Positions 1,272-40,857 are shown, numbered from the stretch's first letter. The stretch is DNA of 64,000 nt from an uncultured Gammaproteobacteria bacterium (GCA_964514545.1 CAZETR010000011.1:102413-166412); one strand, 5' to 3'. Notes: generated by a model from the sequence alone, not told the origin. Translations and numbers: made by a program.

Positions 1272-2165
1272 CTAAAGCAATCGTTTAACAATCGCTGTTT
1301 TTATCTTTTGCAATGATCTTCCACTGTGTGACCAGTGCATGTATCTTTTGATTGAAATATCAATCTGTTGCTTTACGCCTGATTCAAAATTGGTTTCCTC
1401 GATTTCGGCGAATTTGTCTTTTTCCCAGGCTTTGAGATAAAGAACAAGCTCAGAAAAAGATTGAAGCAATGCCAGGGCTAAGCCGTGAATGCCGTCCTTG
1501 TAACCTTGCCCCGCATAAAACCGACTAATAAACTCGTCTGTGGGGCGGTTAATCAGATCGATCCAGCTAAAGCGGTACCCTGCTTTACCCAATTTTTGTA
1601 ATTGGAAGTTGGTATATCTATCTAACCGACTTAAGTACTCGCTAATTGAACCGTAGTGATGGTGAATTATGGCGTATTCTTCTCCTTCGAGTTTTTTTCC
1701 CTGTCCTAGCGGAGTCGGTTGTTTGTGGATTTCAACCGGCCAGGAAAGGGAACCCTTTTTGAAAAATCTGATCAAGAAATCCGGCCAGTAGCGAGAGTGT
1801 TGGATCCATTTGCCAAAAATGATGTTTTTTCTGGGGATCTGGTAATAGGAAAAATGGGATTTTGTGAGTGAGCGTAACTTATTGCCTAGATAGGCCGGGA
1901 TTTCTTCGTCAGCATCGAGAATGAATACCCAATCTCCGGTTGACTTCTCGATCGAGTAGTTGCGGGCAGGTTCGACGTAGCCTGTGTATTTATGAGTGAA
2001 AACCTTGGCCCCGAGCTTTTTGGCGATTTCTTTTGTTTTATCTCGCGGGTCTGTCGACATGTCTACTACAACCACTTCATCCACAAAGTTTTTAATCGAA
2101 TTAACTGCACGGGCGAAATTTTTCTCTTCATTCCAGGTGATAATGGCAGCTGAGATTCTGGTCAT
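1272..2165 (-). CDS. glycosyltransferase family 2
   Basis: AIITWNEEKN...VVVDMSTD...ILDADE motifs mark the GT-A fold (DxD). Confidence 0.8.
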   Translation of the reverse strand: MTRISAAIITWNEEKNFARAVNSIKNFVDEVVVVDMSTDPRDKTKEIAKKLGAKVFTHKYTGYVEPARNYSIEKSTGDWVFILDADEEIPAYLGNKLRSLTKSHFSYYQIPRKNIIFGKWIQHSRYWPDFLIRFFKKGSLSWPVEIHKQPTPLGQGKKLEGEEYAIIHHHYGSISEYLSRLDRYTNFQLQKLGKAGYRFSWIDLINRPTDEFISRFYAGQGYKDGIHGLALALLQSFSELVLYLKAWEKDKFAEIEETNFESGVKQQIDISIKRYMHWSHSGRSLQKIKTAIVKRLL

Positions 2166-3893
2166 TCAGTCAATTTTATCATCAAACTTATAAACACTAA
2201 CTACGTGAGGATCGTCATATATTTCAGTGAGTCCAGTTTGACTGGGACCGAAAGAAAAGTTTTGTCCTTCTAGAAGGTATAGATATTTGATGTTGTTTCT
2301 TTTTAGAAAGGAGGAGGCGTGCTTGTTGTCGGGATCTGACAGAAATTTCTCTACTTGTTCACGTCTTTCCCGCCAGGGGTAAGAGCTGATTTCCAGATTT
2401 ATTTCGTCTTCAATAAATGTCTGGTGACTAGATATCGCTGAAACGTAGGCAGTTGTTTCATAGGCGAAGACAGGTCGAGGCTCCGTAAAACGTTGGAAAT
2501 CCTCTTTTTTAAACGGATATGTCAGGACAACTCCCGGGGGTTGTTTCTTAAGGAAATTTAACGCTTTTAGTTCTGAGCTGGGAATTGCAGCTGGCGGCCG
2601 ATTTGGCAAATAGTTCGGGAGAGTGCCTAAGGTTGAAGGAATTGTAAGTAGAACAATTGAAGTTCTAAGGACTACAGAAATTCCGGGGGATAGTCTGGAT
2701 ATAAAAATAGCCGCAAATATGCCAGCTATTATCTCTGTGTAGTAGAAAAATTGGATGGTGTTCCAGGGGTTGCCTCTCTGCACAAATATGAGCGTCGGGA
2801 TGACTGAGATAAAAAGTGAAATGGTAAGAATTTGTAATATCCAACTACTTGCGCTTTCTGTTTCATTGCTGGGGAAATACTTGTTTTTTCTCAGCAACAC
2901 AACAAACCCAATAGTTCGTGTCCCAAGATTGCCAATCAAAAATACCGTCAGGGCGAACAATTCAGCTGGGATCCATTTGGCTAGATTGCGGGAATTCATA
3001 TAATTTTGCCGGGCACTCGCGAACCTCTCCCAACCAACCCGATCCCGAAATTCCATCATTGTTCTGGGAAACCATAGTGGTTCAATTTTGATTAGTCCTC
3101 CGGCATTTCGGTTAAGGGGAAGAAAAGTAAACATTGAAATTATGAAGATGGCCAGAAATAGCTTTAGAACTGCAAAGTCCCGATAAACAAGAAATCTAAG
3201 GAGTCCGAATATAAAAAGGCTAACCAGGATAATTACTCCGCCGTATACCTTTATGATTGGCAGAAGTCCGAAGATAAATGCGGTTGTCCAAAAGTTTGTG
3301 GCTGTATTTTTTTTGAATAGTTTCAACAGCTGGTTAAAGCCAAGGAATAAAAAAACCAGGGATAACATGAAAGGCGGATTAACTGGGAAGGAGATGGACT
3401 GAATTGACCAGAAGGCAGATTCTCCTCCCAATCCATGTCCCTTAATTAAATTTACTAGATACCCAAAACTACCGCCAAAATAACAAAAAAATATTGCCCA
3501 TAGACCTGTTTTTTGGTTTGCGGTCAACTGGATAACGAGTCGGTACATAAGAAGCCCGACTCCTAGGGATAGTAAGGGGGGCAAGATTTGAAAATAGAGG
3601 ATTGGGATCGGAATTCTGGTCAACTGATAAAGAAGAGCTGCAAGCAAATCGAATCCGAAGTGGTAGTTCTGTATGAGGTTCCCCGCAAATGATGGGTGGG
3701 TAAAGTTAAATTTTGCCAACTGGTTTATAAGCGATATGTGCCAAAGACCGTCGTGCGCGTTGGGTCCCCAGAATCCCATACCATATTTGTAGGATATTCC
3801 ACTTTTGATCATCACCGCGGATTGAGTCGCGGTTCCGATAAGTATTAACAGAGCTGCGCGGAGATCAACACGACGATGAAGCTGCTTAGTCAT
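2166..3893 (-). CDS. polytopic GT-C-like membrane protein with a C-terminal periplasmic domain (putative glycosyltransferase/polymerase)
   Basis: The 583-aa ORF has more than 10 predicted TM helices and a ~200-aa soluble C-terminal domain. The start is probably MTKQLHRR, overlapping the upstream gene by 4 nt. Confidence 0.5.
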   Translation of the reverse strand: MTKQLHRRVDLRAALLILIGTATQSAVMIKSGISYKYGMGFWGPNAHDGLWHISLINQLAKFNFTHPSFAGNLIQNYHFGFDLLAALLYQLTRIPIPILYFQILPPLLSLGVGLLMYRLVIQLTANQKTGLWAIFFCYFGGSFGYLVNLIKGHGLGGESAFWSIQSISFPVNPPFMLSLVFLFLGFNQLLKLFKKNTATNFWTTAFIFGLLPIIKVYGGVIILVSLFIFGLLRFLVYRDFAVLKLFLAIFIISMFTFLPLNRNAGGLIKIEPLWFPRTMMEFRDRVGWERFASARQNYMNSRNLAKWIPAELFALTVFLIGNLGTRTIGFVVLLRKNKYFPSNETESASSWILQILTISLFISVIPTLIFVQRGNPWNTIQFFYYTEIIAGIFAAIFISRLSPGISVVLRTSIVLLTIPSTLGTLPNYLPNRPPAAIPSSELKALNFLKKQPPGVVLTYPFKKEDFQRFTEPRPVFAYETTAYVSAISSHQTFIEDEINLEISSYPWRERREQVEKFLSDPDNKHASSFLKRNNIKYLYLLEGQNFSFGPSQTGLTEIYDDPHVVSVYKFDDKID

Positions 3894-5386
3894 GAGGACT
3901 TCGTAGAAAATAACCAACCAAGGTTTCTGTCCTGAAGAATTCGTCTGAACTCCGGCTCCAATTGATTTTTACTAATCTTAGATAAAGCTAATGAGTAAAC
4001 AATAACCGCGACAATTATAGAAACTGGTATTCCCGTGGGTTTGCTGATAAGTTTGAGAGTTATTAAAAGACTAAGTGACATTAAAAGGGTCGAGGCTAGA
4101 GGATTGATGAAACAAACAACTAAATTAAATCTGATATAGAGCCTGGTAATGATAATCGGGACAATCGAGGTGAGCGCAATGATGGCAGTTGCGTATGCAA
4201 CGCCCATGAAACCCAATCTGAGTGCGAAGATGGGTACGATGGTAAGAGTCGCAATAGTCCACATAATCATTAAATAAAATGTAACCCTGATCTTACCTAT
4301 GGCATTGAGGGCGCTGGTAAGTGGAGTAGAAACTGCAGCCAAAGCTGCCGAGAAAAGATAAAAGTATAAAGGGGTAAGCCCGACTTCCCATTTTGAGTAT
4401 CTGGGAATGAGCTGGATTAATGGCTTGGCCAAAATTCCGAATCCAAAAAGTATCGGAAAGATAAGGGCACAGGAAAAGAAGAGGGACTTTTCTAAAGCTA
4501 GCTTGAGAATTGTTTTATCATCCTGAAGTCTAGAGAGCGCAGGAAACGTTACCTTAGTTACGTTGTCCATGATGAACCGTAAGGGTTTCTGGGACCAAGT
4601 TTGCGCCCAGCCAAGGATGCCAACTCCCTCCGCGCCAATTAATTTAAACAGGATTAGGTTGGTAAATCGATCTTTGATCACGGCCAAAAATGTATTTAAC
4701 TGATAGGGAATTCCGAATTTTAATAATTCTTTCAGCGAGGCAGTTGAAAATGAGAATCCTACCGACCAAGAACCGAGAATATAAAGAAGGGTTGTTCCTG
4801 CTATTCCTCGACCTAGGACGGCAAAAGTATAACTGCTCAGACCATAGCCATTTTTGGCAAGAACTACTGCAATTGAATAGAAAATGAGAGTTTCAACAAC
4901 CTCAACGTACGCGAGCTTGTCAAATTTTAGTGACCTTTCTAGCAGTATTGAGGGGATTGTCTTTAAAGAGGCCAGGAAAAACCCAGCCATCAATGCCAGG
5001 AGCAGATAAACCCCTGACTGAGGGAGATTGTAGAATTTAATCAATTTGGGGAGAGCAAGAAGGACGATTGAAATCAGACCAAGTACCAGCGCTTGTTGAA
5101 TTGTAAATGTAGTGCGAAGGTCCTTGGTACTAGGTTTTTCTTTCTTTTGGATAAGGGCAGCCGCAAGGCCGATATCCGAGAAGTAACCAAGAATTCCGAT
5201 AATTTCTGTTATCGCAAAAAAGAGACCGATCTCTGATCGTCCAAGAAGAACAGTCAAGAAGAAAAAACCGAAGGATGAGATAAGCTGAACTAAGACAGAT
5301 CTGCTTATAAGCGATGTCACTCCCTTAATTGAACGTGATTTGATTAGCTCTAGATCTAGTTCTTCCTGTTGATCGGTTGCTTCCAT
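3890..5386 (-). CDS. Wzx-like oligosaccharide flippase (MOP/polysaccharide biosynthesis protein family)
   Basis: 498 aa with about 12-14 TM helices. The topology and the N-terminal SRSIKGVTSLISRSVLVQLISSFGFFFL region resemble Wzx/RfbX flippases. Confidence 0.7.
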   Translation of the reverse strand: MEATDQQEELDLELIKSRSIKGVTSLISRSVLVQLISSFGFFFLTVLLGRSEIGLFFAITEIIGILGYFSDIGLAAALIQKKEKPSTKDLRTTFTIQQALVLGLISIVLLALPKLIKFYNLPQSGVYLLLALMAGFFLASLKTIPSILLERSLKFDKLAYVEVVETLIFYSIAVVLAKNGYGLSSYTFAVLGRGIAGTTLLYILGSWSVGFSFSTASLKELLKFGIPYQLNTFLAVIKDRFTNLILFKLIGAEGVGILGWAQTWSQKPLRFIMDNVTKVTFPALSRLQDDKTILKLALEKSLFFSCALIFPILFGFGILAKPLIQLIPRYSKWEVGLTPLYFYLFSAALAAVSTPLTSALNAIGKIRVTFYLMIMWTIATLTIVPIFALRLGFMGVAYATAIIALTSIVPIIITRLYIRFNLVVCFINPLASTLLMSLSLLITLKLISKPTGIPVSIIVAVIVYSLALSKISKNQLEPEFRRILQDRNLGWLFSTKSS

Positions 5387-5400
5387 AAACTCATTTTAGA

Positions 5401-6513
5401 CTAACTCTTGAAGAAATTCTTTCTAATGCTTTGTGAAAAGGACCAAAAAAAATAAATTGTTAGCATGCTGAGAAATGGAGAAACTAATAGAAAATATCTG
5501 GGAAAGGCGCTAGTCATAGAGATAAAGATTAGATAAGTTCCGACCCACAACCAGATTAATAAAGCCAGTATGTCTTTCCTTAAAGCTATGAAAACTATTG
5601 CTAATACGCCTAATAATGTTATTGAAGGCCATAAGATGTTCCATTCGGAAACCCTAATAAATTCCGGCCCGGGCCACCAAGTTCTCCACCATCCGGTGGC
5701 TATCATTCTGATTCCCCCTCCCCATGGGGCCTGAGCATTTCCGGCCCACCAACCGGTAAGCCATCGCTGAAATTTTAAAAAACTAATAAGGCTTGGGTCG
5801 TGGGCAAACCTCGGTAGATAGGGAATGAAATATCCGACGACTGTAAGTAATAAGCTTTTGTTGAAACTGATAAATGAATAAAATCTTTTATTCAGCACCA
5901 GAACAACTTGCAATATACTAAGAAGTAACAAACCGTTAAAGTAAAATTTGATCGTCATGGAAAGACCTAAACATAGAGCTGAAAGATAGAACCAATTCCT
6001 GCTCTTGAGACCTCGTATAAAAAAATAGATACTAAGGGAAAATGCTAATAATTGACTTGTGTCTAAATTTGCAGTGGTTAATAGATATCGGAACTCGGAA
6101 TCCATGCTTTCCAGAATGATGACTAAAATAGGCAGTGTAGAGTTCGGAAATAATTTAAGGGAAATTAAATAAAGAACTCCTAGTTCAAGCAATCCGAGAA
6201 TAAGGTTGATGATGTTTTGGTTGCGGAAAAGAACAATACTCAGTCCAATTAATTGTTTTCCAAGTGGGGGAACTTCGGGGTGCAGTGCTGTCGGATCTTG
6301 TCCTTTTATATATTTATAGCCTAATATAGAGTAAAGTTCGCTATCGGAAAACTCGTGTTTTGCCTTTCCCCCCATCACTACTTGTGACACTGAGAATTCC
6401 TTTTGCCAATAATCTATATCGTACGGCGTGAGGTATGCTTGGCGATTATTGTATATAAATTGACCAAGGTTGATGATTAGTATTACCAGAAGCAGTGTGT
6501 TCAGTTTTTTCAT
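5401..6513 (-). CDS. PMT/ArnT-like GT-C membrane glycosyltransferase (GT39-like)
   Basis: A first extracytoplasmic loop carries LHPEVPPLGKQL, matching the conserved HPPLGK motif of protein-O-mannosyltransferase/ArnT-type GT-C enzymes. Multiple TM helices. Confidence 0.5.
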   Translation of the reverse strand: MKKLNTLLLVILIINLGQFIYNNRQAYLTPYDIDYWQKEFSVSQVVMGGKAKHEFSDSELYSILGYKYIKGQDPTALHPEVPPLGKQLIGLSIVLFRNQNIINLILGLLELGVLYLISLKLFPNSTLPILVIILESMDSEFRYLLTTANLDTSQLLAFSLSIYFFIRGLKSRNWFYLSALCLGLSMTIKFYFNGLLLLSILQVVLVLNKRFYSFISFNKSLLLTVVGYFIPYLPRFAHDPSLISFLKFQRWLTGWWAGNAQAPWGGGIRMIATGWWRTWWPGPEFIRVSEWNILWPSITLLGVLAIVFIALRKDILALLIWLWVGTYLIFISMTSAFPRYFLLVSPFLSMLTIYFFWSFSQSIRKNFFKS

Positions 6514-7907
6514 TTTAGGGGCTGTTCGTCCCAGACCAAGCCAACTCCACCGGTTTGAAATTGGGGGGTGGTGTTGAGATATCTGGGCGGAATTACGATG
6601 CTATATATGATCTGCGGTTTATTTGGATCCAAGGTGATTTTACTTCGCCAAAAAAGATAGTCAAAGCCAGTATTGTATCCCGACGAAATAAGAGAGGGAG
6701 AGATGCTTAATCGTCTACCGCTTGAATGACTTATAATTTTGTCAACTATCTGCTTCTTGGCCAATAGATTTGGTTCCTTAGTGAAATTCACCCACTGGTA
6801 AAAGTTAATACCCGCCAGAATGAGAATGGACAAGATAGTGACCCGATTTAACTTTGGGTGTTTAATAAAGTATGTCATTATAAGGCTCCAAATTAGCACC
6901 GTTGGGGCATATATCACCATTGGGTAATAGTCGGTGATGTGTCCAGGATAGAGAAGAAGCGAGAACGTGGTAGTCATAAATAAGAGGATGTAGGTTTGAA
7001 AAGAAAGTTTAACTTTGGCAATTATTAGTTCGCGGTAACTGATAATGGCAAAGGTGAGAAAAATTGGGAAAAAATAGAATCCCCTGAGATGAAGTCCGTT
7101 GCCAAGAATGCCAACAGGATTGTTTAACATGATTCGGAGAGGATCCCAGAAATTGATACCACCCTGTGATAGTTTGCTAAACAGACTCACCAGTGAGTCC
7201 GTGATTCGAAAATTGTGCCTTAGGTCAAAGAGCGCTAATGGCAAGGTTGTGAAGAAAAATGAAAGAATAGGGATGAAAAACTGTTTTATTGTATCGAATT
7301 TATAGCGATTTAGAGAAAGATAGATTACTGAAGTCAAAAGAAGGATTATCGAGGTGGGGTGAAAGTGAAGCCCAAGGCCGAGGATAATAAAGTGAAGAGT
7401 AAGATATTTAGAATCCGAAAGTTTCAATAGTGTATAAAACCATAAAGTGGGAATCAAAAACATTCCGTTTAGGGGAGAGGCTCCGCTGTCCCAGGTTATT
7501 GTAAAAGTGGAAAATTGGTAAATAGCTGCTGCAATAAGGCCTGTAGTTTGGTTGTAAACGAAATCCCCTAGTTTAAATAATGCCAGAGTACTCAAAACCC
7601 CGAAGAGTATTGCAAGATAACCACCCCCGACGGGGTCCATGTTAAATATCCAGTAAAATAGATTGGAGAGGTAGGTGTAAAGAGGACCGATGAATAAACC
7701 ACGCACGCTTGCTTCCTGGCCAATTAAGGTAAATTTATGATCGACTAGCATTTTTTTTGCTTCCCAGGCAAAAAAACTGTTGTCGTACTCAAATGACAAA
7801 CGCGACTGAAAGTGATACAAACGGAGCAACGTTCCCAGTAAAACGAATGTGGCCAGAAGCATCCTGTTGCGGTCAGATTTTGCGAGAAGGCGGTTGAATT
7901 GGAGCAT
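6510..7907 (-). CDS. GT-C family membrane glycosyltransferase (ArnT/PMT_2-like paralog)
   Basis: 465 aa, polytopic. An N-terminal loop motif EYDNSFFAWEAK...LIGQEASVRGLFIGPLYTYL is shared with the 10184 and 11692 paralogs. Confidence 0.6.
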   Translation of the reverse strand: MLQFNRLLAKSDRNRMLLATFVLLGTLLRLYHFQSRLSFEYDNSFFAWEAKKMLVDHKFTLIGQEASVRGLFIGPLYTYLSNLFYWIFNMDPVGGGYLAILFGVLSTLALFKLGDFVYNQTTGLIAAAIYQFSTFTITWDSGASPLNGMFLIPTLWFYTLLKLSDSKYLTLHFIILGLGLHFHPTSIILLLTSVIYLSLNRYKFDTIKQFFIPILSFFFTTLPLALFDLRHNFRITDSLVSLFSKLSQGGINFWDPLRIMLNNPVGILGNGLHLRGFYFFPIFLTFAIISYRELIIAKVKLSFQTYILLFMTTTFSLLLYPGHITDYYPMVIYAPTVLIWSLIMTYFIKHPKLNRVTILSILILAGINFYQWVNFTKEPNLLAKKQIVDKIISHSSGRRLSISPSLISSGYNTGFDYLFWRSKITLDPNKPQIIYSIVIPPRYLNTTPQFQTGGVGLVWDEQPLK

Positions 7908-9438
7908 TTAACTTGAAAAACAAAAGGTGTTCTGTTTCGCGATTAGAATTAGCTGTTTTGGGATATGAATTTATTAGACTAAGCCCAACTAAGGCAGGGT
8001 TTTTAATTGATAAACGGGAGTCATTGATAACTAAATATACATCATTGTCGATCAGGCTATTTGATAAAGACTCGGGAACGTGATCCGGAAATAGTCCGAT
8101 GCCGATTATTCGAATGTGGCGAAAATCGTTAAGATACATTTGTAACCCATCTGGTAATGTTCCAAAATATCCTTCCGTTCCGACCAGAATTGGTTTCGTA
8201 GGTTGTTGTTTTAAATAGTTTGCGACCTCCCTAATGCCGTAACCTGCCGTCCACAACTCGAAATATCCTGATTTTTCCGATTGCGGGAGATTTTGGGTTT
8301 CTGGCTTCGTTACAAGCAAAAAGGACAAAATAATTGGCCAGGAAAAGAGAAAAAAAACGACAAAGATTGAAAGATTTAATTTATTCCTGGTATTTCGCTT
8401 GTTATTGAGAATAAAACTCGCACCGGACGCAGAAAGAATTAGGAAAAATGGTATCACGTAGAGGAAGTATCTTGCCGTCAATACTTTAGCTATTAAGTTT
8501 TGAGCCATGAACGGCACCAAAAAGAGAATGATTAGATATAATGTCGGTGTGGCTTTTTTCCTTAACCCAGTAACTACCCCGACAAGAGCGAGCAGTATTA
8601 CCGGCGGTGTCAGGAAATAACCCAAATACGAAACGGCCGTTGAGGTGTTGGGGATTATCGGGGTTAAGGGATGTTTTACAATTTCGGAAAGCGGAAAAAC
8701 ATAGTCTTTGTTTCGCAACGAAATCATATGAAACTGCGGACCCAGCCGAAGGATGTTATACATGCTAATAGCTATTAGATAAATGACAAGCAGTAGAAAT
8801 GAGTTAGAGATTACGGATTTGGTTTTTCCCTTTAGGCTTGCTTGGTGATTTAGACCATATAGCAAAAAGGGCAGCGGCAACATCAATGTGAATAACTGGG
8901 CCGGAGATTTGGTAAGCAGGGAAAACCCGAGAAAAAATCCGGTAATCATAGCTGTGTCCAGGCGATGTGTCTTGGCTGTAATCAGAGCGAGGACAAAGGT
9001 CCAAGTTCCAAGGAAGGCTAAAAGGCTATCGACAAGAGCAAATCTATCAAAAAAAATTAAATAGGGGCAGAGGGAGGCTAAGATCAAGCTAAAGAAGGTT
9101 GTTGACCTGTTTTTGTAAACTAAGTGGGCAAGAATAGTTATTCCTACAACTGAACCCAATCCCGAAAGAACTGAAACGAGGCGGCCTGCGAATAACGGAT
9201 CGGTGGGTATCAGCTTTAGGAAGGGAATTATAATCCACATGAATAGGGGCTGTTTACCATCGCTGAGCGGTAAAAACCTTAAAGTAGACTCGGCACGCAT
9301 AACCTGAGCCCACCGGATGTAAATTGCCTCATCTGCAAATATAGGAACATTGTTTAGGGAAAAAATTCTGAAGAGTGCACCCGCGAGAAAGATTAGGGTG
9401 ATCAAAAGCCAAGTTTTGAAAGAGGCGGCCTTATACAT
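7873..9438 (-). CDS. ArnT-like GT83/GT39 polyprenyl-phosphate-sugar-dependent glycosyltransferase
   Basis: FADEAIYIRWAQVM...GKQPLFMW matches the ArnT family DEAxY...KPPLxxW signature. 521 aa, polytopic. Confidence 0.65.
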   Translation of the reverse strand: MYKAASFKTWLLITLIFLAGALFRIFSLNNVPIFADEAIYIRWAQVMRAESTLRFLPLSDGKQPLFMWIIIPFLKLIPTDPLFAGRLVSVLSGLGSVVGITILAHLVYKNRSTTFFSLILASLCPYLIFFDRFALVDSLLAFLGTWTFVLALITAKTHRLDTAMITGFFLGFSLLTKSPAQLFTLMLPLPFLLYGLNHQASLKGKTKSVISNSFLLLVIYLIAISMYNILRLGPQFHMISLRNKDYVFPLSEIVKHPLTPIIPNTSTAVSYLGYFLTPPVILLALVGVVTGLRKKATPTLYLIILFLVPFMAQNLIAKVLTARYFLYVIPFFLILSASGASFILNNKRNTRNKLNLSIFVVFFLFSWPIILSFLLVTKPETQNLPQSEKSGYFELWTAGYGIREVANYLKQQPTKPILVGTEGYFGTLPDGLQMYLNDFRHIRIIGIGLFPDHVPESLSNSLIDNDVYLVINDSRLSIKNPALVGLSLINSYPKTANSNRETEHLLFFKLNAPIQPPSRKI

Positions 9439-10180
9439 ATCTACCCAGAAGATCGTTGATTCTAACTCTGGCGACTTCCTTGAGCATCTCTATAGACTCC
9501 TGAATAAATTTTCTTTCCTTTGAATTACTGGTATCTGTGTCACTCCAATCTACGGTAACTTCTTTAAGTTTAAATCCTTTCTTTAGAGTGACATAAAGAA
9601 GTTCTACGTCCCAAGCGCCTACTCTCCACCCAATTCCACGCTCCCGGCGAAAAACGAACAAATGTCTAAAAATCTCTCTGGCAACTTCTAACTTAAATAA
9701 TTTAAAACCGCACTGCGTGTCTTTAATTTGCGGGAGAATAAGAAAACGCCTAAAAAGGAGAAATAAAGGGGAGGCAATTTTTCGCAGAATAGGAAAATTC
9801 TCTCTTCTAAATCCCCTGGAACCAATGACTACGTCAAAGCCATCTGTTAGATAAGGCTTGAGCTTATCCAGTTCTCTGATCGGAGTAGACTGATCCATAT
9901 CGGAAAAGAGTACGAATTTACCGCGGGCTATATCGACAGCGCTTTTTATAGTAAAGGCTTTTCCCCCTTTGGAATTTTCCAGAAGCGAAAATCCCTTTTT
10001 TGTTTTTATGGCGTTTGAAACGTACTCACGGCTTCCGTCGGTTGAATAATCGTCGGAGATGATTACCTCCCAGTCAAAGTCCTGTTTTGTTAGATAGGTT
10101 TCAACTTCTTCTAAAACTCCCCGCCTTAAATTGGCAAGCTCGTTGTAGCAAGGAATGATAACTGTTAGGTATGTATTCAC
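9431..10180 (-). CDS. GT2 polyprenyl-phosphate sugar synthase (GtrB/Dpm1-like)
   Basis: VIIPCYNE...ISDDYSTDGS...FSDMDQS...VIGSR are typical Dpm1/GtrB motifs. Confidence 0.8.
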   Translation of the reverse strand: MNTYLTVIIPCYNELANLRRGVLEEVETYLTKQDFDWEVIISDDYSTDGSREYVSNAIKTKKGFSLLENSKGGKAFTIKSAVDIARGKFVLFSDMDQSTPIRELDKLKPYLTDGFDVVIGSRGFRRENFPILRKIASPLFLLFRRFLILPQIKDTQCGFKLFKLEVAREIFRHLFVFRRERGIGWRVGAWDVELLYVTLKKGFKLKEVTVDWSDTDTSNSKERKFIQESIEMLKEVARVRINDLLGRYV

Positions 10181-10183
10181 TTT

Positions 10184-11689
10184 TTATGGTTTATAGTCTT
10201 TGTTGCGGGTTCGTCTCTGGACCGTAATGCCTCCAAAGCTTGCCTCGTAGGATACCTGACCGATACCGGCCTGGCGATTTAGCCAAGCCGCTAGTCGCTC
10301 TGGATGAGGAGGATCTTGTTCGTAAAGAGTATAGAGCAGGGGCACCCACCCTGTCTGTGGGAGTTTGTGGGCGCGATTTCCCATCCAAAGAAATAGATAA
10401 TCGTAGGCATATGGAATGACTGGAGGAACGTATACGTCAACGTTAAATGGTGTTGTACCTGAGTCGGTTAAGACCCATTGAACTGCCTGCTTTTGGTTAC
10501 CGAGCGTGATGTGTGTCGGTCCGTCTGTCCCGGCAATAAGTGAGTTTTTAGCGAGAGGGATGTTTGTCCAGATAAAGGTGATCATGAATAGAGAAACTGC
10601 GATTTTTCCGATTGGCTTGTTTAGTTGAGAAGTTAATGAGATGGAAACCAGGAGAATGAAAATCGGAAAGCTTCCAGAGAGATGATAATCGTAGACATTT
10701 CCGTGGTTACCCTGATAAAACAAAAGCAGCAGAAGCTGGGGGATAGTGAGAATGAGAGCTGATTTTGTCAAAGGCGAATCCCAAGTTCTTACGGTAACTA
10801 ACATAAAAATGATTAAAACTGGTAATCCCCACTTGATCAAATTTTGATTGTAGGCGAAGAGCTTATTACCAAAGCCGTTTTGATAAAGTGCTAGTCTATC
10901 CCTGAATAAGTCTTGAGGTTGGCCTTGAAAGCTTTTTTCGGAAATTAATTGGTTTGTGATATTTTTAAGCATTATATGTTGGTGGCGAAAGTCAAAAACT
11001 GCCTGGGGCAGAAGAGTAAGTGAAAACAATAGCAAGGAGATGGCTAATGTCTTAAGCGGTGGTCTGTTCGGCCATTGCCAAATTAAAAAAAGAATCGTGG
11101 CCGGAATAAAAAACATGGCTGAAGCAACCTCAAACTGAAGCGATAGACCGATTGTCAGAAACGCCAGTGTCCAATAACTAGTTTTTCCGCCGGTAATTTT
11201 ATTGAAGCAATAGAGAAGTATGGTGCTACCGACCATGACCGGCGGGGGGTTACTTAACCAGCGATTGAGCCAAAACATTGGCTGGGAAAAAGCATATATA
11301 AATGCAGCCAAAACTCCGGCTGCTTTATTTGTTGTCCGTCCGAGCTTATAAAGGAGATAGATGGGAACAAGTTGAAGCGCACTAATAAACATGGCGGGTA
11401 TTACTGGATTTCCCTTACCCAACCAATAGAACGGCGCAATCAATAAGTAGAAGGCAGGACCCAAAAAAATGCCGTCTAGTCCCGTAACCGGGCCAACTAA
11501 AAAAAATTTTCCTCGAGTGAGAAACTGGTTAATGACCAGGGCATCTCTGCCTTGATCGTAATAGAATCCGAGCAGGTCACCTAAACGGAACCAGCGGACA
11601 AAGACGGCTCCAACAAGAATGAGCGCAATTGAAATTTTCTCTATCCTTGCCCAACTGAATGCGTTTTTAGTTTTTGCCTTATTTTTCAT
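10184..11689 (-). CDS. GT-C family membrane glycosyltransferase (paralog)
   Basis: Polytopic. YYDQGRDALV...LVGPVTGLDGIFLGPAFYLL loop motif as in the paralogs. Confidence 0.6.
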   Translation of the reverse strand: MKNKAKTKNAFSWARIEKISIALILVGAVFVRWFRLGDLLGFYYDQGRDALVINQFLTRGKFFLVGPVTGLDGIFLGPAFYLLIAPFYWLGKGNPVIPAMFISALQLVPIYLLYKLGRTTNKAAGVLAAFIYAFSQPMFWLNRWLSNPPPVMVGSTILLYCFNKITGGKTSYWTLAFLTIGLSLQFEVASAMFFIPATILFLIWQWPNRPPLKTLAISLLLFSLTLLPQAVFDFRHQHIMLKNITNQLISEKSFQGQPQDLFRDRLALYQNGFGNKLFAYNQNLIKWGLPVLIIFMLVTVRTWDSPLTKSALILTIPQLLLLLFYQGNHGNVYDYHLSGSFPIFILLVSISLTSQLNKPIGKIAVSLFMITFIWTNIPLAKNSLIAGTDGPTHITLGNQKQAVQWVLTDSGTTPFNVDVYVPPVIPYAYDYLFLWMGNRAHKLPQTGWVPLLYTLYEQDPPHPERLAAWLNRQAGIGQVSYEASFGGITVQRRTRNKDYKP

Positions 11690-11691
11690 TG

Positions 11692-13845
11692 TTAAGTTGG
11701 CTTTATGTGAGCTAATTTGAAAACTTTAACGCCCCAGGGGAAGTTCCATTCCGAATCAATTTTGGTCCATCCAAAGGCGGCTATTTCCCACTCGGGGTTG
11801 CCGACTGGCTGACATGTCTCGTCTTCGCAGACGACAAAAAGTTGATCGGTTACCTGATCTTTTACTTTCCTGTATGGGGCATCATTAAGCTCAAGAAAAT
11901 ACGCGTAGCTTTTGTCATAGTTTCGTTTAGCAATCAGGGCAAAGTTAAAGGGTTTTCCGGCTGATTTCTCTATTACAAACTGAGAAATAGTCCGAGTTCG
12001 CGAAAGCTGGTTATTGGGTGGAGTCTGAAGTGGATTGTTTTGTATACTAATTATGGCAATTGTCACAAATATTGGAACTGAAAGGTATTTGAGGGCCTTG
12101 AAAACGAAGCCGAGGAGAAGAAAAACTGCCGGAAACAGAAATCCATAGTAATGACTGTAGATATGCTGTTTGTAGAGACCTAATCCAATTAATCCGAATG
12201 TTACCCAGGCAAGAACAAAAAACTGGTCGAGAAAGTTGAATCTTTTTTTAAAAGAAAGAAGTGTTCCAATTGGGAAAAGAATTGAGATGATACTAGAGAA
12301 TAAGGCGTTACGGACACCGAAGAGGGCGGCATTTATGTCCTTCCATATGGGCCAGAGATTGGGAATTGCCTTATAGGCCTTGAAATTTACTGTTGTTTGA
12401 CGATTGGAAAAGAAGGCGATAATTGCCCTGGAATTTAGAAAATTGTGCCTGAGGTCAAACCAGAGAAGAGGTGACATAAGAAGTAAAAAAATGATTGCGG
12501 CTAAGGCTATGTGTTTTTTAAAGCCTGTTTTTTTGGGAGAAAGGGCCACAAATAATACAATTGTGGGAGCGAGTAAAAGACCTAAATAATGTGATTGCAG
12601 AACAAAGGCGAACGAAACGGCACTTGCCACAAGCCATCTCCAATAACCGAATTTAGCAACTTTCCAGATACCGTACATTGTGAGCAGGGCAAAGAAAGGC
12701 ATGACATTGGGATTCCAAGAGGAACGGGAATAAATTATCGTAGTTGATGAGATAGCGTAAAGAGTAGAAACTGCAAGAGCTTCAATTCTTCCGAACCATT
12801 GTCTGCCTGCCCACCAAATGAGGGCAATTGTAGCTAAGCTGAAAAGGGCAACCATGACTGCCGGGCCCACAGGTGAATAGTTGAAAAGAAGGAGTGGAGG
12901 CAGCATCAGGTAGTAATAGAGCGGACCGAGGTACATATTACCGACTGAGGTTTGGGGGCCGATCAGCGCCGGGTGGAGTTCCTGGATCATTCGCCGGACA
13001 ATAAGAACATCACGTCCTTCATCTCCTAGAAAGGTTAAGTATTGATCGATTTTGTAAAGTCTTAAAAATCCGCCCACAAGGAGTATAACTACTAAGGTTG
13101 CAAGTTCCCATTTGAAGACGGCCCGGCCCTGTTCAACGAGTATCTCCTTTTTTAATTGCCACCAAAAAATTATCAATTCCCGAAATGCTTTGAAGATAAC
13201 TTTGGGGTTCCCCCCCGTGGACTTTCCTGCTGTCCGAGGTAAATGGGTAACTGGAAGTTCTGCGATCGACATTCCCCTAGCCCGGGCGCCCGCGAAAAGC
13301 TGGGTGTCGATCATAGCTCCATTTGAGGGGAGGCTGATTTTTTCTAAAATATTCCGGCGAAAGAGTTTGAATCCGCAGTCTACGTCTGTGGCAAGATAGC
13401 CAAAGAGAGCCCGAACTATTGTGTTCCATCCCCATCTAAATATTCTCCGGTGAAAAGGATCACTGTCCTGGGTCCTGATGCCACTGACTATGTCGGCATT
13501 GGTCTGGGATTGTTTTTCAAGCAGCCTTTTAATCTCGGAAAAATCGAATTGGTTGTCAGATGGAACAAATGCTATAAAGTCGTTTTTGGCTGCATAAAAG
13601 CCAGTCTTAAGCGATCCTCCATAGCCCTGGTTTGGATTGTTTTCAATTACTCTGGTGTTTGGGATATTTTTGGCCAGGATTTTGGCTACTGTCCCGGTTT
13701 TATCTTTTGAGCCGTCGTTGACAATAATTATTTCCCAATCCAGACTTTTTAATCCTTTGAGGGCCTTAAATAAATTCTGTAAACAAGCGGCAATGTTCTT
13801 TTCTTCGTTGTAGGCTGGAACCACGACTGAGAGGCTTTTAGGCAT
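11692..13845 (-). CDS. bifunctional fusion: N-terminal GT2 polyprenyl-phosphate sugar synthase plus C-terminal GT-C membrane glycosyltransferase
   Basis: The N-terminus (VVVPAYNEEKNI...VNDGSKDKT...FVPSDNQ...SGIR) is GT2. After about 230 aa it becomes a polytopic GT-C carrying LGDEGRDVLIV...LIGPQTSVGNMYLGPLYYYL. It is one uninterrupted 717-aa ORF. Confidence 0.7.
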   Translation of the reverse strand: MPKSLSVVVPAYNEEKNIAACLQNLFKALKGLKSLDWEIIIVNDGSKDKTGTVAKILAKNIPNTRVIENNPNQGYGGSLKTGFYAAKNDFIAFVPSDNQFDFSEIKRLLEKQSQTNADIVSGIRTQDSDPFHRRIFRWGWNTIVRALFGYLATDVDCGFKLFRRNILEKISLPSNGAMIDTQLFAGARARGMSIAELPVTHLPRTAGKSTGGNPKVIFKAFRELIIFWWQLKKEILVEQGRAVFKWELATLVVILLVGGFLRLYKIDQYLTFLGDEGRDVLIVRRMIQELHPALIGPQTSVGNMYLGPLYYYLMLPPLLLFNYSPVGPAVMVALFSLATIALIWWAGRQWFGRIEALAVSTLYAISSTTIIYSRSSWNPNVMPFFALLTMYGIWKVAKFGYWRWLVASAVSFAFVLQSHYLGLLLAPTIVLFVALSPKKTGFKKHIALAAIIFLLLMSPLLWFDLRHNFLNSRAIIAFFSNRQTTVNFKAYKAIPNLWPIWKDINAALFGVRNALFSSIISILFPIGTLLSFKKRFNFLDQFFVLAWVTFGLIGLGLYKQHIYSHYYGFLFPAVFLLLGFVFKALKYLSVPIFVTIAIISIQNNPLQTPPNNQLSRTRTISQFVIEKSAGKPFNFALIAKRNYDKSYAYFLELNDAPYRKVKDQVTDQLFVVCEDETCQPVGNPEWEIAAFGWTKIDSEWNFPWGVKVFKLAHIKPT

Positions 13846-13859
13846 GGTACAATAATAAC

Positions 13860-14981
13860 ATGAAGCGCCTACGAGTTTGGGCGGTGCTTGCCTTAGTTAC
13901 CGTCCTTTCCACGTTTTTAGTCTGGGTGCCGTTTTGGCTAAGACTACCTTCTTTTTGGGGAATCAGGATTCCGCCTGACGGCATGGGAACAGTTTTTCGC
14001 AACTTTGACGGACCGTTATATCTGGTTGTTTCTAAAACTTTCTATAACTTTGCGCTGGGAAATCGATTTGAGTTCCCTTTGGCGAACGAATATTACTCGG
14101 CGCATTTTCCTCTCTATCCTCTAATTATCCGGGTTTTGGGAATCGGTTTTAGCTTTCCGTGGGCCATGCTCGTTGTCACTTTAATTTCCAGTGTCTTGGC
14201 TGCCTGGATCTTTTACGAGCTTGCCTTGGATTGGTTTGACCAGAAAAAGGCGTTTTGGCTTACCTGCTTATTTTTGATTTTTCCGGCTAGGTTCTTGGTC
14301 GTCCGCTCTATAGGGTCGCCAGAACCACTCTTTATGTTTTTAATGATGACCTTTGTCCTGGGTTTAATGAAGAAAAATTACTGGATGGTCGGGATTGCCG
14401 GGATTTTGGCGGTTCTAACTAAGAGCCCGGGGGTACTACTGATTGTAGGTTACGGGGTATACCTAATTTTGACAAGGACTGTCCTTGTCAGGCCGTTTAA
14501 GGAGTATTTAACTGTAGCTTTAATCCCGCTAGCACTTCTGGGGTTATTTGGTTTTTATAAATTCCGCTACGGAGATTTTTGGACCTATTTCCACTCGGGA
14601 AATAATATCCATCTCCAGTTTCTGCCATTTAGGGTTTTTAACTTTCAACAAGACTGGGTCGGAACTCATTGGCTGGAAGATATCATTTGGGTTTATACAT
14701 TTGGGTTGATTGGTCTTCTGAGACTGATTGATAAGAAGAAAAACGAGATGGTTGCATTTGTGGGAGTATATTTGTTGTCGATTTTCTTTGTCTCTCACCG
14801 AGACATTTCCAGATATGCATTACCAATTATGCCATTTGTGCTTCTGTCTCTCGGGGATGTTATTGAAGTCAAATATTTGAAATGGTTTATCTGGGTAATG
14901 TTTTTCCCCATACTTTTGTACTCAATTAATTTTATTGCCAATAATACTATGCCGGTTTCTGGTTGGGGACCTCTTCTTTAA
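13860..14981 (+). CDS. hypothetical polytopic membrane protein (possible GT-C/mannosyltransferase-like)
   Basis: 373 aa with about 10 TM helices. It is the only plus-strand gene inside the glycosylation cluster. No firm family was recognised. Confidence 0.4.
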   Translation: MKRLRVWAVLALVTVLSTFLVWVPFWLRLPSFWGIRIPPDGMGTVFRNFDGPLYLVVSKTFYNFALGNRFEFPLANEYYSAHFPLYPLIIRVLGIGFSFPWAMLVVTLISSVLAAWIFYELALDWFDQKKAFWLTCLFLIFPARFLVVRSIGSPEPLFMFLMMTFVLGLMKKNYWMVGIAGILAVLTKSPGVLLIVGYGVYLILTRTVLVRPFKEYLTVALIPLALLGLFGFYKFRYGDFWTYFHSGNNIHLQFLPFRVFNFQQDWVGTHWLEDIIWVYTFGLIGLLRLIDKKKNEMVAFVGVYLLSIFFVSHRDISRYALPIMPFVLLSLGDVIEVKYLKWFIWVMFFPILLYSINFIANNTMPVSGWGPLL

Positions 14982-14999
14982 TTTTTATTTATATCCAGG

Positions 15000-16121
15000 C
15001 TAATTTTTCTTCTTCCAAATGACGCGTGTATACATGAAGTAATTATACGGGAGAACTAAAAAGACAATTGCAAGAGCAAGAATAACTTGCCTGTGCTGTG
15101 AGCCAAAGAAATTTACTCCGATGGTACCTACAACTATTTGGATAAGTAGTCCCCCACTTGAGGTTAAATTGAATTGAAAAAACTTGGCGATTAAACTTTT
15201 GACACCCCTGATCTGGCCTGATTTGAATGTCCAAAGATTATTAAGGGTGAAATTGGATATAATTGCTAATTCTGTGGAGAAGGTCCACGAGGCCCATTCG
15301 AATAGCCCAATACGGGAGAAGAAATTGAGAGTGGTAGCATTTATAAGATAGCCTATAAAGCCGACAACGCAGAACTTGAAAAAACGCAGGAGTTTAGGGT
15401 TATGAGCTTGGAGAAGAAAAATGACTCTTAGGGTTTCCTGCATTTCGTTTTTAATAATTTTTGAGTCGCCAGATGTTCGGGGTTGAAACTGAATAGGAAT
15501 TTCTTTTACTTTGGCTCCTTTATGGACCATGTAGAAAAGAAGGTGGATTTTGTAGGCAAAGCTACGCGAGAGAAGTGTGTCAAAATCAAAATCGGCCATG
15601 AAACCTTTTACCCCGGAGAGTCGAAATCCTCCCGTGACGTCGTGGATCTGGGGCAGAAGAAGGAGTACGCGGGCGATGAGATTTCCGATCACGCTCAATA
15701 GTTTTCTGTCCAGTCCCCAATTTGCGGGAATAGACCCGCCTTTGATGTAACGGGACCCAATAATATAATCATACCCGTTGTCGATTTCATCAATAAGTTT
15801 AGGAATGTCTTCGGGCCGGTGCTGAAAATCTCCGTCGAATTCCATCAGATAGTCAGCATTTAATTTATCCATCGCAAACTTCATTCCCTTGGCATAGGCT
15901 TTTCCTAACCCCTCTTTTCTTTTTTCTAACAACAAATGCAGCCAAGGACGTGTTTTTTTCTTCTCGGATACTATTTGGGCTGTTTTATCCGGACTGTTGC
16001 CATCTACGTACAGGAGGCTTGTGTCGTGCTTAATTTTGGGAATTATTTTATCTAAAGCACTAATCATCCGTAGGGTGTTGTCTTTTTCGTTATATGTTGG
16101 AATAACAATGACTATTTTCAT
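15000..16121 (-). CDS. GT2 polyprenyl-phosphate sugar synthase with a C-terminal GtrA-like TM domain
   Basis: VIPTYNEKDN...YVDGNSPDKT...FDGDFQH...IGSRY, followed by a roughly 4-TM C-terminal GtrA-like region. Confidence 0.8.
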   Translation of the reverse strand: MKIVIVIPTYNEKDNTLRMISALDKIIPKIKHDTSLLYVDGNSPDKTAQIVSEKKKTRPWLHLLLEKRKEGLGKAYAKGMKFAMDKLNADYLMEFDGDFQHRPEDIPKLIDEIDNGYDYIIGSRYIKGGSIPANWGLDRKLLSVIGNLIARVLLLLPQIHDVTGGFRLSGVKGFMADFDFDTLLSRSFAYKIHLLFYMVHKGAKVKEIPIQFQPRTSGDSKIIKNEMQETLRVIFLLQAHNPKLLRFFKFCVVGFIGYLINATTLNFFSRIGLFEWASWTFSTELAIISNFTLNNLWTFKSGQIRGVKSLIAKFFQFNLTSSGGLLIQIVVGTIGVNFFGSQHRQVILALAIVFLVLPYNYFMYTRVIWKKKN

Positions 16122-16933
16122 GGCAGTATTTTAAGCTTTTCAAAGCGAATTTGAAAAGCGAGGAGGATGTATTCAATGATGTCGTGAAGATAAGTGCGCA
16201 GGTATTTGGGGTTAAAGCTGACTTTTGACTCACCGGCGGTACGAAATCTGTACGTTACTGGAAACTCGTGAAACTTTTGGGTAACTAGGGTTAGCTTGAA
16301 GAGAAAGTAGTTGAAAAAACCAAAGCCCACAGTACTCATGCGGCCAAAATCAACCCGGTCCAGGACACCCTTGACCCTAATAGCGCGAAAGGCGCCGTTG
16401 TGGTCGTAAACCTCCTTAACCCCCGCAACCCAGGTGGCAAATAATTTATTGGCAACCCAGTGATTTAGCTTGCGATTAAAATTCCAACCCTCGGTTTTAC
16501 CATTTCCAACGTGGCGGGAGCCAACAATTACATCGAATCCCTCGTCAATTTTTTTGAGCATATAGGGAATATGTTTTGGGTCGAAGCCAAAGTCTGCCTC
16601 GTTGGGGATAATCACGTCAGGGCGAAGATCTTTGAGAGCGTATTTGATTCCCCGGATCATAGCAACCCCCAGTCCCTGTTTCTTGCCGGTAAGTAAGAAT
16701 AGGCTTTTGTCTCTTTTTTGAAACTCTTTAACAACGTCTTGGGTTTTGTCCGGAGAATTGTCATCGACTACCAGGATTAAGTGTTTGTGTTTTTTGTCAT
16801 GCGCGGCAATATTTTGCAGAACCGGGATCATTTTGGTAATATTTTCCCTTTCGTTGTAGGTGGGAATTAAATTCACAACTACGGCCTTTTGCATACGACG
16901 AATATACTGCGAATTTGATACAATTGACATCAT
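16118..16933 (-). CDS. GT2 polyprenyl-phosphate mannose/glucose synthase (Dpm1-like)
   Basis: LIPTYNEREN...VVDDNSPDKT...VGSRH are Dpm1-like motifs. Its start codon abuts the trmD start on the opposite strand. Confidence 0.8.
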   Translation of the reverse strand: MMSIVSNSQYIRRMQKAVVVNLIPTYNERENITKMIPVLQNIAAHDKKHKHLILVVDDNSPDKTQDVVKEFQKRDKSLFLLTGKKQGLGVAMIRGIKYALKDLRPDVIIPNEADFGFDPKHIPYMLKKIDEGFDVIVGSRHVGNGKTEGWNFNRKLNHWVANKLFATWVAGVKEVYDHNGAFRAIRVKGVLDRVDFGRMSTVGFGFFNYFLFKLTLVTQKFHEFPVTYRFRTAGESKVSFNPKYLRTYLHDIIEYILLAFQIRFEKLKILP

Positions 16934-18688: not shown

Positions 18689-19126
18689 ATGATGAGAAAG
18701 AATATTAAAATCAAGGTCAAAAACTCAGGCTTCGTAAAGCTCCAGGTTTTTAAAGACCCTCCAGATGGAGATTTGTTTATAGCGGAATATTCTCGCCATA
18801 TTCCTTTCAAAGTTAAACGTGCATACTTCATAAACCATCTCGATAATAAAAATGCAGTTCGCGGCAAACACGCACATAAAAAGCTCGAACAACTTGTCTT
18901 CTGTATAAACGGTTCTTTTTCTCTACACTTGGATGATGGAGATAAAAAACAGAAGGTTGCTCTCGAGGATCCATCTATCGGAGTAAGGTTAGGGCCATTG
19001 CTTTGGCACGTTATGACAGACTTTTCAAAAAACTGTGTTATTTTGGTTCTCGCTGATGACCTTTATAGAGAAAGTGACTATATTAGGAATTATCGAACAT
19101 TCCTGAAGCTTTCCAATAAATTATGA
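18689..19126 (+). CDS. fdtA: dTDP-4-keto-6-deoxyhexose 3,4-ketoisomerase (FdtA/QdtA/WxcM-like cupin)
   Basis: 145 aa. VRGKHAHKKLEQLVFCINGS...GPLLWH...DYIRNY is the WxcM/FdtA signature. A GGAGAG RBS lies upstream. Confidence 0.75.
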   Translation: MMRKNIKIKVKNSGFVKLQVFKDPPDGDLFIAEYSRHIPFKVKRAYFINHLDNKNAVRGKHAHKKLEQLVFCINGSFSLHLDDGDKKQKVALEDPSIGVRLGPLLWHVMTDFSKNCVILVLADDLYRESDYIRNYRTFLKLSNKL

Positions 19127-26160: not shown

Positions 26161-26162
26161 AG

Positions 26163-28597: not shown

Positions 28598-28603
28598 GAA
28601 GAT

Positions 28604-37060: not shown

Positions 37061-37092
37061 TCGTCTTATTATCCGGTAAAAGCATCGCCTAA

Positions 37093-40834: not shown

Positions 40835-40857
40835 TACTTGATGTAACGTTTGTATTT

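Follow-up and report, generated by a model that had tools for sequence, protein, structure and literature searches.

The locus described here occupies positions 1272-16933 of a 64,000-nucleotide stretch of DNA (CAZETR010000011.1:102413-166412, hereafter the window) deposited as an uncultured Gammaproteobacteria bacterium. Within 15.7 kb it holds five family 2 glycosyltransferases (GT2), seven membrane glycosyltransferases of the GT-C fold and one Wzx-type flippase of the MOP superfamily, as recognized by family searches and two confident structure models; from this gene content, the locus is predicted to load sugars onto lipid carriers and to attach them to a surface molecule outside the membrane. 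The 13 open reading frames (ORFs) named in an earlier note, which had been made from the sequence alone, were all reproduced by ORF calling with the same ends, and genes are referred to by their lower coordinate (Table 1). The co-directional run described in that note was found for the other named genes, which lie on the minus strand, but not for 13860, which lies on the plus strand. Minus-strand neighbors mostly overlap by a few bases or sit 2-14 bases apart, and these overlapping or closely spaced starts and stops suggest translational coupling along the run. Promoter and terminator scans gave results near those expected from shuffled sequence, leaving transcription units undefined; no tRNA genes or Rfam matches were found in the 64-kb window. 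The cluster takes up approximately 2% of the genome, and functionally linked sugar-nucleotide genes extend the locus to approximately 23.06 kb.

Table 1. Genes of the glycosylation cluster and of the wider window, with predicted assignments and the evidence for them (aa, amino acids; TM, transmembrane).
Gene or feature	Coordinates	Strand	Assignment	Evidence
1272	1272-2165	-	soluble GT2, 297 aa, not Dpm1-type	Glycos_transf_2 3e-17
2166	2166-3893	-	GT-C-fold membrane glycosyltransferase with AglB/STT3-like C-terminal globular domain	predicted structure
3890	3890-5386	-	Wzx-type MOP-superfamily flippase	Polysacc_synt_3 1e-44; Polysacc_synt 5e-21
5401	5401-6513	-	short GT-C, 370 aa, accessory	PMT_2 3e-9, 37.7 bits (cut-off 26.1)
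6510	6510-7907	-	GT-C, paralogue of 10184 and of 11692 C-domain	PMT_2 2e-9
7873	7873-9438	-	core GT-C, after and overlapping GT2 9431	PMT_2 5.5e-8; PMT 2e-5
9431	9431-10180	-	core polyprenyl-phosphate sugar synthase-like GT2, 249 aa, no TM segment	Pfam GT2 1e-21
10184	10184-11689	-	GT-C, paralogue of fusion C-domain	PMT_2 4e-7
11692	11692-13845	-	fusion of Dpm1/ArnC-like GT2 (~1-240), one amphipathic helix and GT-C domain (~245-717)	Glycos_transf_2; PMT_2
13860	13860-14981	+	core GT-C, 373 aa, between DPMS gene and fusion gene	PMT_2 4e-6
15000	15000-16121	-	dolichyl/polyprenyl-phosphate mannose synthase (DPMS)-type GT2, full length	GT2 1e-22; GtrA_DPMS_TM 5e-15
16118	16118-16933	-	second DPMS-like GT2, catalytic domain only, 271 aa, accessory	Pfam GT2 1e-22
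trmD	16860-17597		housekeeping neighbor of cluster
17599	17599-18633	+	344-aa soluble protein between trmD and FdtA-like gene
FdtA/WxcM-like	18689-19126	+	sugar ketoisomerase	Pfam FdtA 8e-42
DegT family	19123-20253	+	sugar aminotransferase	DegT_DnrJ_EryC1 4e-112
RmlD-like	20375-21343	-	reductase	NCBIfam rmlD 3e-27, below cut-off
RmlB	21309-~22331	-	dTDP-glucose 4,6-dehydratase	dTDP_gluc_dehyt 1e-125, above cut-off
RmlA	22328-23057	-	glucose-1-phosphate thymidylyltransferase	NCBIfam rmlA 4e-42, below cut-off
LCP	39734-40834	+	LytR-CpsA-Psr (LCP) ligase	LytR_cpsA_psr 5e-32
DUF2298	40858-42951	-	membrane protein, 697 aa; small ORF beside it	DUF2298 4e-114
GT4	43426-44559	+	glycosyltransferase	Glycos_transf_1 4e-23

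All five GT2s carry PF00535 (Glycos_transf_2). The earlier note had called all five Dpm1-like, and in searches of solved structures four of them group with DPMS, ArnC and GtrB rather than with processive synthases. Gene product 15000 aligned with Pyrococcus furiosus DPMS (5MLZ) at 1.3e-44 over residues 1-369, the GtrA-like domain of four TM segments included; 16118 aligned with the catalytic domain of the same structure at 4e-26; the N-terminal part of 11692 matched ArnC at 9e-15 and DPMS at 6e-14; and 9431 matched DPMS at 5e-10, ArnC at 1.5e-8 and GtrB at 3e-7. The fifth, 1272, departs from this description, being closest to GmaR (8e-16, residues 4-184) and SunS (1e-6) and reaching DPMS only at 0.0066. 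Of these two relatives, GmaR is the Listeria flagellin O-GlcNAc transferase, and SunS is a peptide S-glycosyltransferase. The acidic motifs of 15000 (D96-x-D98-x-Q100) and 9431 (D94-x-D96-Q97) are conserved, as measured across 66-86 orthologues, and 16118 is 34% identical to 15000. No TM segment was predicted in 9431 or 16118, whereas 15000 has its GtrA_DPMS_TM domain and the fusion protein has an amphipathic helix followed by TM helices; by analogy with Dpm1 types that lack TM segments, 9431 and 16118 may need a membrane partner.

The fusion protein 11692 combines the two enzyme classes in one chain. Residues D97 and Q99 of its GT2 domain are invariant among relatives, as is the GDEGRD loop of its GT-C domain. 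In the structure model, an amphipathic helix (214-238) is followed by a single TM helix (245-263) and then by the GDEGRD loop; because a GT2 that uses nucleotide sugars must be cytoplasmic and one TM helix lies between, the loop should face the outside. The model of the C-domain (predicted local distance difference test, pLDDT, 86) matched the folds of Pmt4 (25.6), ALG12 (24.5), ArnT (23.0) and AglB (21.1). Among relatives, the GT2 and GT-C parts form a single ORF in 34 of 83 loci and adjacent, separate genes on the same strand in 43 of 83, with the split pairs dividing at the same domain boundary at gaps of -19 to +45 bp, although a few of the overlapping split cases could be sequencing frameshifts. 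This fusion and fission supports the synthase and the GT-C as a working pair, and it lends independent support to the proposal of the earlier note that GT2 synthases feed GT-C enzymes.

The membrane proteins matched PMT_2 and not transporter families in the profile searches, with 2166 placed by its fold instead. The PMT_2 gathering score was passed by six proteins (5401, 6510, 7873, 10184, the C-part of 11692 and 13860), including 13860 at 27.6 bits against a cut-off of 26.1, so that the six or seven GT-Cs counted earlier come to seven. The Pfam PMT threshold was additionally passed by 7873, narrowly (24.7 bits vs. 22.7), with a conserved loop-1 DE motif, and 13860 matched the NCBIfam model AZOBR_p60025 ("cell surface glycopolymer formation") at 6.5e-10, below its cut-off; neither of these two proteins had a match in single-sequence or profile searches of solved structures, and a Pfam scan found no MIR domain in any GT-C. 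Acidic residues of the first loop are invariant or at least 93% conserved in the six GT-Cs compared (D36/E37 in 7873, D50 in 13860, D45/D49 in 10184, D42 in 6510, D275/E276/D279 in 11692 and D48 in 2166). In 7873, residues D36, E37, R42, D60, K62, R132, D137 and K177 are at least 93% conserved among 70 sequences; 13860 conserves D50, G51, H82, R144, E155 and H313-R-D315; 10184 conserves D45-QGR-D49; 6510 conserves D42 in 29 orthologues; and in 5401 an MKK N-terminus, TM1 and a YDIDY loop can be read from the sequence. The positive-inside rule orients such N-termini, and since the other GT-Cs have K/R-rich N-termini before TM1, their first loops would face outward; the fusion architecture and these N-termini together place the acidic loops outside, as the earlier note had anticipated. 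Mutual recognition by blastp was confined to 10184, 6510 and the C-domain of 11692 (22-28% identity; 6510 reached 10184 at 2e-18 and 11692 at 1e-19, and 10184 reached 11692 at 1.5e-12), the rest being too divergent to align; the GT-Cs are thus ancient paralogues rather than recent duplicates, which fits distinct specificities. The divergent starts of 11692 and 13860 are separated by a 14-bp spacer (13846-13859), so that each promoter must lie inside the coding region of the other gene or further upstream, and this back-to-back arrangement is kept in relatives.

Some of these GT-C-like proteins could instead be flippases or scramblases, with 11692 a synthase-flippase unit like archaeal Agl22/Agl23. 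The NCBIfam model TIGR03663 (Agl23) was matched by 7873 at 6e-8 and by the 11692 C-domain at 2e-7, and purified Agl23 translocates lipid-linked oligosaccharide and has been proposed to be a hexose-P-dolichol flippase (PMC11182771). Additionally, there are four synthases to a single GtrA-like domain and a single Wzx, with dedicated donor flippases otherwise missing, and a synthase fused to a flippase would be mechanistically sensible. However, the TIGR03663 scores of approximately 30 bits fall far short of the 126 set as family cut-off, the acidic residues of the outer loop, which act in catalysis in GT-C transferases, are invariant here, and the folds match bona fide transferases. Overall, we regard this alternative as improbable, although not every GT-C-like protein at the locus need be a transferase, because the PMT_2-like Agl23 acts as a flippase.

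The remaining two membrane proteins of the cluster appear to form a second pair. The Wzx-like identity proposed for 3890 was borne out by its Pfam matches and by three NCBIfam models, all below cut-off (MOP flippase 6e-37, O-glycosylation flippase 2e-29 and TuaB 2e-23); its identification as the lipid II flippase MurJ was rejected, since only Wzx-type families match and there is no MurJ/MVIN hit. MOP-superfamily flippases for polyprenyl-monophosphate donors have precedent (PMC11127046), and the substrate of this Wzx may be a monophosphate donor or, alternatively, a glycan linked through a diphosphate. Its stop overlaps the annotated start of 2166 as ATGA (the likely start of 2166 is the ATG at 3893, in an ORF open to 3917). 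No Pfam or NCBIfam match was found for 2166, whose homologues are annotated as hypothetical and lack precomputed Pfam domains. The family showed no sequence-level similarity to solved chains in single-sequence and profile searches and was placed by fold comparison alone, yet its AlphaFold model (pLDDT 93, from a 44-sequence alignment) is unambiguously that of a GT-C and matches AglB/STT3B, the C-terminal globular domain included, with Pmt4 scoring slightly higher. A WWDYG-type motif is absent from the family consensus. A search of 1.84 billion proteins gave approximately 1,666 cluster representatives of the family at E <= 1e-3. Among these, P0273 (1,639 aa, predicted) has an N-terminal Wzx domain (Polysacc_synt_3 1e-54), a middle region and a C-terminal 2166-type GT-C, a fusion that supports Wzx and the 2166-type GT-C as a working pair. 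Many members (P0128, P0151, P0199, P0254, P0258) reach 1,000-1,150 aa through a secreted N-terminal extension of approximately 450-590 aa, which is absent from the window protein and has only a sub-threshold DUF3863 match. DUF2298 and the 2166 family appear to be distant relatives (hhalign probability 95.5%, E 1.6e-8), and the DUF2298 protein elsewhere in the window would therefore be its eighth GT-C-like protein.

Conservation of the locus was assessed by scanning species-representative genomes, which returned at least 80 loci whose ORFs were called and compared with the window proteins; the 80 loci were used because the 524 matching stretches are not a species count, two patterns being able to match one gene, and the counts given here cover the 54 loci of at least 20 kb. 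The core comprises a DPMS, an opposite-strand GT-C, the GT2 plus GT-C unit, a further GT2 and a further GT-C, usually together with a Wzx and a 2166-type GT-C, and its order and orientation are kept in the 54 loci, all from other species, at approximately 30-60% identity; a recurrence of this kind indicates that the gene arrangement is not due to chance. The fusion or both of its halves and 9431 were present in all 54 loci, 7873 in 53, 13860 in 52 (on the opposite strand in every case) and 15000 in 51. Counts were lower for 10184 (33), 6510 (24), Wzx (30) and 2166 (19), the last two being undercounted at the edge of the 10-kb flank. The genes 16118 (5 of 54), 5401 and 1272 (3 of 54 each, the latter as best-hit counterparts in the long loci) are rare, and wherever 1272 occurs it directly follows a 2166-type gene. 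A pairing of 16118 with the accessory GT-C 5401 was considered and dropped, since the two never occur together in the relatives' loci. In other lineages, the same slot holds different extra GT-Cs, such as a PTPS_related protein. The core of the locus is conserved and its periphery varies. The neighborhood recurs as well, with trmD in 28 of 54 loci and rmlA/B/D-like genes adjoining the cluster in 24-28 of 54. The possibility of a mobile island, or of one gained by horizontal transfer, was rejected on the grounds of neighbor-like GC content (0.40-0.44 in the region, similar to its surroundings), housekeeping flanks (trmD, and a ribosomal operon 21 kb off) and class-wide synteny.

All informative organism names among the 80 loci were Microgenomates or Patescibacteria, and homologues of the fusion protein occur in Candidatus Amesbacteria, Woesebacteria, Daviesbacteria and other Microgenomates. 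On this sequence evidence, the source organism is a Microgenomates bacterium of the Candidate Phyla Radiation (CPR) with a tiny genome. Many of the cluster-bearing metagenome-assembled genomes are titled "uncultured Gammaproteobacteria" or "Pseudomonadales" and one is titled "Clostridia bacterium" (e.g., L005-L007, L010, L011, L012, L014); these titles look like placeholder or wrong taxonomic labels.

The cluster might also be a collection of independent modification systems with different targets (e.g., lipid, peptidoglycan, protein) that happen to be co-located. The GT-Cs are mostly unrelated in sequence, accessory members come and go between lineages, and three-component systems for different targets coexist in Gram-positives (PMC8035078), all of which would suit this explanation. 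It is nevertheless unlikely, given that the core order and orientation are maintained across Microgenomates families at 30-60% identity, that starts and stops overlap tightly, and that one Wzx and one sugar-nucleotide gene set are shared.

The sugar-nucleotide genes lie beyond trmD and narrow the candidate sugars, which the earlier note had left unassigned, to derivatives of dTDP-6-deoxyhexose. The FdtA-like and DegT genes form a predicted route to dTDP-3-amino-3,6-dideoxyhexose; neither gene reached an NCBIfam equivalog cut-off, and no counterpart of the pair was found in the relatives' flanks. Relatives carry rmlA/B/(C)/D at this place without the FdtA-aminotransferase pair, and this difference in gene content suggests that the deoxysugar differs between lineages. 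The 17599 gene matched nothing in Pfam or NCBIfam and had no meaningful hit among solved structures, and the relatives' flanks hold no counterpart; it could supply a tailoring activity, acyl or other, that the amino-sugar pathway is missing.

Combined, these results suggest that the locus is probably an envelope-glycan locus of Microgenomates, working as a multi-donor version of three-component transmembrane glycosylation, with a wall or membrane-anchored heteropolysaccharide as the preferred acceptor. The families, folds, motifs, topology, synteny and fusions described above are the observed ground of this model, in which the catalytic activities, the sugars handled and the acceptor are all predictions. 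In the first step, for which the homology is strong, the cytoplasmic enzymes 15000, 16118, 9431 and the N-domain of 11692 would load sugars from nucleotide sugars onto polyprenyl phosphate. The lipid-linked sugars would then reach the outer leaflet by way of the GtrA-like TM domain of 15000, Wzx or possibly the GT-C-like domains, and dedicated GT-Cs would pass them to a growing acceptor outside the membrane, with adjacency suggesting the pairings of 9431 with 7873, of 15000 with 13860, and of the 11692 N-domain with its own C-domain and the paralogues 10184 and 6510. In the fourth step, suggested by gene overlap and by the fusion in one relative, Wzx and the oligosaccharyltransferase-like 2166 would act on a lipid-linked glycan, whether by attaching it or as its acceptor module. 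The dTDP-sugar genes would supply 6-deoxyhexoses (a 3-amino-3,6-dideoxyhexose or a 6-deoxyhexose here, rhamnose in relatives), and the variable accessory genes 5401, 6510, 10184, 16118 and 1272 would diversify the glycan between lineages. The leaning toward a heteropolysaccharide acceptor follows from the many GT-Cs acting in sequence, the association with rml genes and the presence of an LCP gene in the window; multi-component decoration of Gram-positive wall polymers has been reviewed (PMC8035078).

Several observations weigh against this heteropolysaccharide model. The top fold matches include the protein-modifying Pmt4 and STT3/AglB, so that a protein acceptor fits equally well, and the PMT_2 scores are modest (27-39 bits). 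The LCP gene lies 23 kb away from the cluster. No Bac_transf, Glycos_transf_4, Wzy_C or Wzz match was found in the ORFs scanned (140-44,559), nor was an initiating phosphoglycosyltransferase, a Wzy polymerase or an O-antigen-type ligase found among them, although these could lie elsewhere in the genome; primer and acceptor pathway are consequently not visible. We know of no polyprenyl-phosphate rhamnose or amino-dideoxyhexose synthase, and the link between the dTDP-sugar genes and the GT2s is therefore positional only. Additionally, rmlA has a 1-nt frameshift near 22925-22935 that puts its first 42 codons (from 23,057) in another frame; intact versions of 239-243 aa occur in relatives (e.g., in L004, 77% identical), and the frameshift is either an assembly error or a sign of a recent pseudogene.

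Other envelope genes lie in the wider window. The LCP, DUF2298 and GT4 genes (39734-44559) may form a second wall-glycan group, possibly linked to the cluster. On the minus strand, 25549-27504 holds a sortase, a VanZ-like protein and a 307-aa secreted protein (26581-27504) with a Pro/Thr/Ser-rich linker and a C-terminal anchor; this protein is a plausible O-glycosylation or sortase substrate, and no canonical LPXTG motif was seen in it. Two adjacent FemAB genes and a G5/3D-domain protein at 35163-37800, and FtsE/FtsX with an M23 peptidase at 27449-30162, likewise on the minus strand, represent predicted peptidoglycan cross-bridge and division hydrolase functions typical of a Gram-positive-like envelope. 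The plus strand at 32899-34455 encodes a protein of 518 aa whose N-terminal part is large and soluble, with several C-terminal TM helices and no family match. The ribosomal protein operon, with SecY and EF-Tu, is also in the window.

The 307-aa secreted protein also enters into the main alternative for the acceptor, namely that PMT-like GT-Cs O-glycosylate Ser/Thr/Pro-rich surface proteins, pilins or an S-layer, with Wzx and 2166 effecting en bloc transfer. Such a role agrees with the best fold matches (Pmt4 and Pmt2; in the case of 2166, AglB/STT3B with the C-terminal domain covered), with the PMT match and DE motif of 7873, with the match of Wzx to the O-glycosylation flippase model, and with the presence of an anchored Pro/Thr/Ser-rich protein beside a sortase. 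The S-layer glycans of Gram-positives typically contain FdtA-type sugars and rhamnose, which also accords with a protein acceptor. Furthermore, a streptococcal GtrB and GT-C glycosylate Ser/Thr-rich disordered regions (PMC11092751). On the other hand, seven divergent GT-Cs and four donors exceed known bacterial O-glycosylation systems, 2166 lacks the WWDYG-type motif, and no MIR domain was detected in the GT-Cs; protein glycosylation is thus possible but somewhat doubtful.

Extending the envelope-glycan reading, the locus might build a lineage-defining surface heteroglycan, wholly outside the membrane, from three or four different polyprenyl-monophosphate donors in the style of mycobacteria, with an independent CPR origin. 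The fusion would then be a make-flip-transfer machine, or a synthase-flippase as in Agl22/Agl23, the Wzx-coupled 2166 family would represent a new class of oligosaccharyltransferase or ligase, and one synthase would make an undescribed polyprenyl-phosphate 6-deoxyhexose. We offer this extension as speculation with a low chance of holding in full.

A literature search, with subscription-only papers outside its reach, retrieved the known three-component systems but no paper on this cluster in Patescibacteria or Microgenomates. Judged by sequence and fold, all of the components belong to known superfamilies; undescribed in the searched literature are a core-chromosomal CPR supercluster of this size, the synthase-GT-C fusion and fission, and a Wzx-coupled GT-C family without a domain model. 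CPR bacteria (Patescibacteria), most of them uncultivated, live attached to other cells with almost no biosynthetic capacity of their own. Surface display is for these reasons central to CPR biology, and a conserved core-chromosomal locus that accounts for approximately 2% of the genome is a concrete candidate for the pathway of the main CPR surface glycan. The two fusion links (between synthase and GT-C, and between Wzx and the 2166-type GT-C) provide testable enzyme pairs, and 2166 represents a further GT-C family, one missed by current domain libraries. The fused synthase-GT-C could additionally shed light on the membrane passage of polyprenyl-monophosphate sugars and on whether GT-C-like proteins can carry it out themselves.

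Among known systems, the three-component type (phage GtrA/GtrB/GtrX of Shigella and Salmonella; CsbB/GtcA/YfhO; GacI/GacK/GacL; the Citrobacter pentofuranose system) also encodes a GT2 synthase, a GtrA-like or MOP flippase and a GT-C together, and the donor is likewise made inside and used outside (PMC11127046, PMC8035078). Those systems have one component of each kind, whereas four synthases, seven GT-Cs and one Wzx are found here, with one synthase fused to a GT-C; the GtrABX type is a serotype-converting add-on, in contrast to the conserved chromosomal core beside trmD and rml genes. ArnC/ArnT and the mycobacterial polyprenyl-phosphomannose (PPM) and decaprenyl-phosphoryl arabinose (DPA) pathways with their GT-Cs are further parallels of this kind. 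At the level of single enzymes, 16118, the 11692 N-domain and 9431 align in their catalytic domains with DPMS 5MLZ, ArnC and GtrB and retain the DxD(x)Q motif, but unlike them 16118 and 9431 lack TM segments and the 11692 N-domain runs straight into a GT-C. A GT2 synthase partnered with a PMT_2/TIGR03663-like polytopic protein is also known from Agl22/Agl23 of Haloarcula, in which Agl22 is a dolichyl-phosphate hexose synthase (PMC11182771); the counterpart here is bacterial and scores far below the cut-off. The protein 2166 shares the fold of STT3/AglB/PglB, including the C-terminal domain, without their WWDYG-type motif or sequence similarity, and 7873 has the loop-1 DE motif of eukaryote-type PMT (GT39), whose luminal MIR domains were found in none of the cluster GT-Cs. 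The synthesis of lipomannan, lipoarabinomannan and arabinogalactan in mycobacteria and corynebacteria (Ppm1 with MptA/B/C and PimE; DPA with EmbA/B/C and AftA-D) likewise uses serial GT-Cs outside the membrane and polyprenyl-monophosphate donors. In mycobacteria the genes lie scattered, and the enzymes fall into other GT-C families (GT53, GT85, GT87, GT89), there are no arabinose or phosphoribosyl pyrophosphate (PRPP) genes here, and AftA, AftB and AftD appear among the fold matches of the cluster GT-Cs, with no sequence kinship beyond the fold. The mycobacterial polymer is attached to peptidoglycan by an LCP ligase, and an LCP gene is also present in this window.

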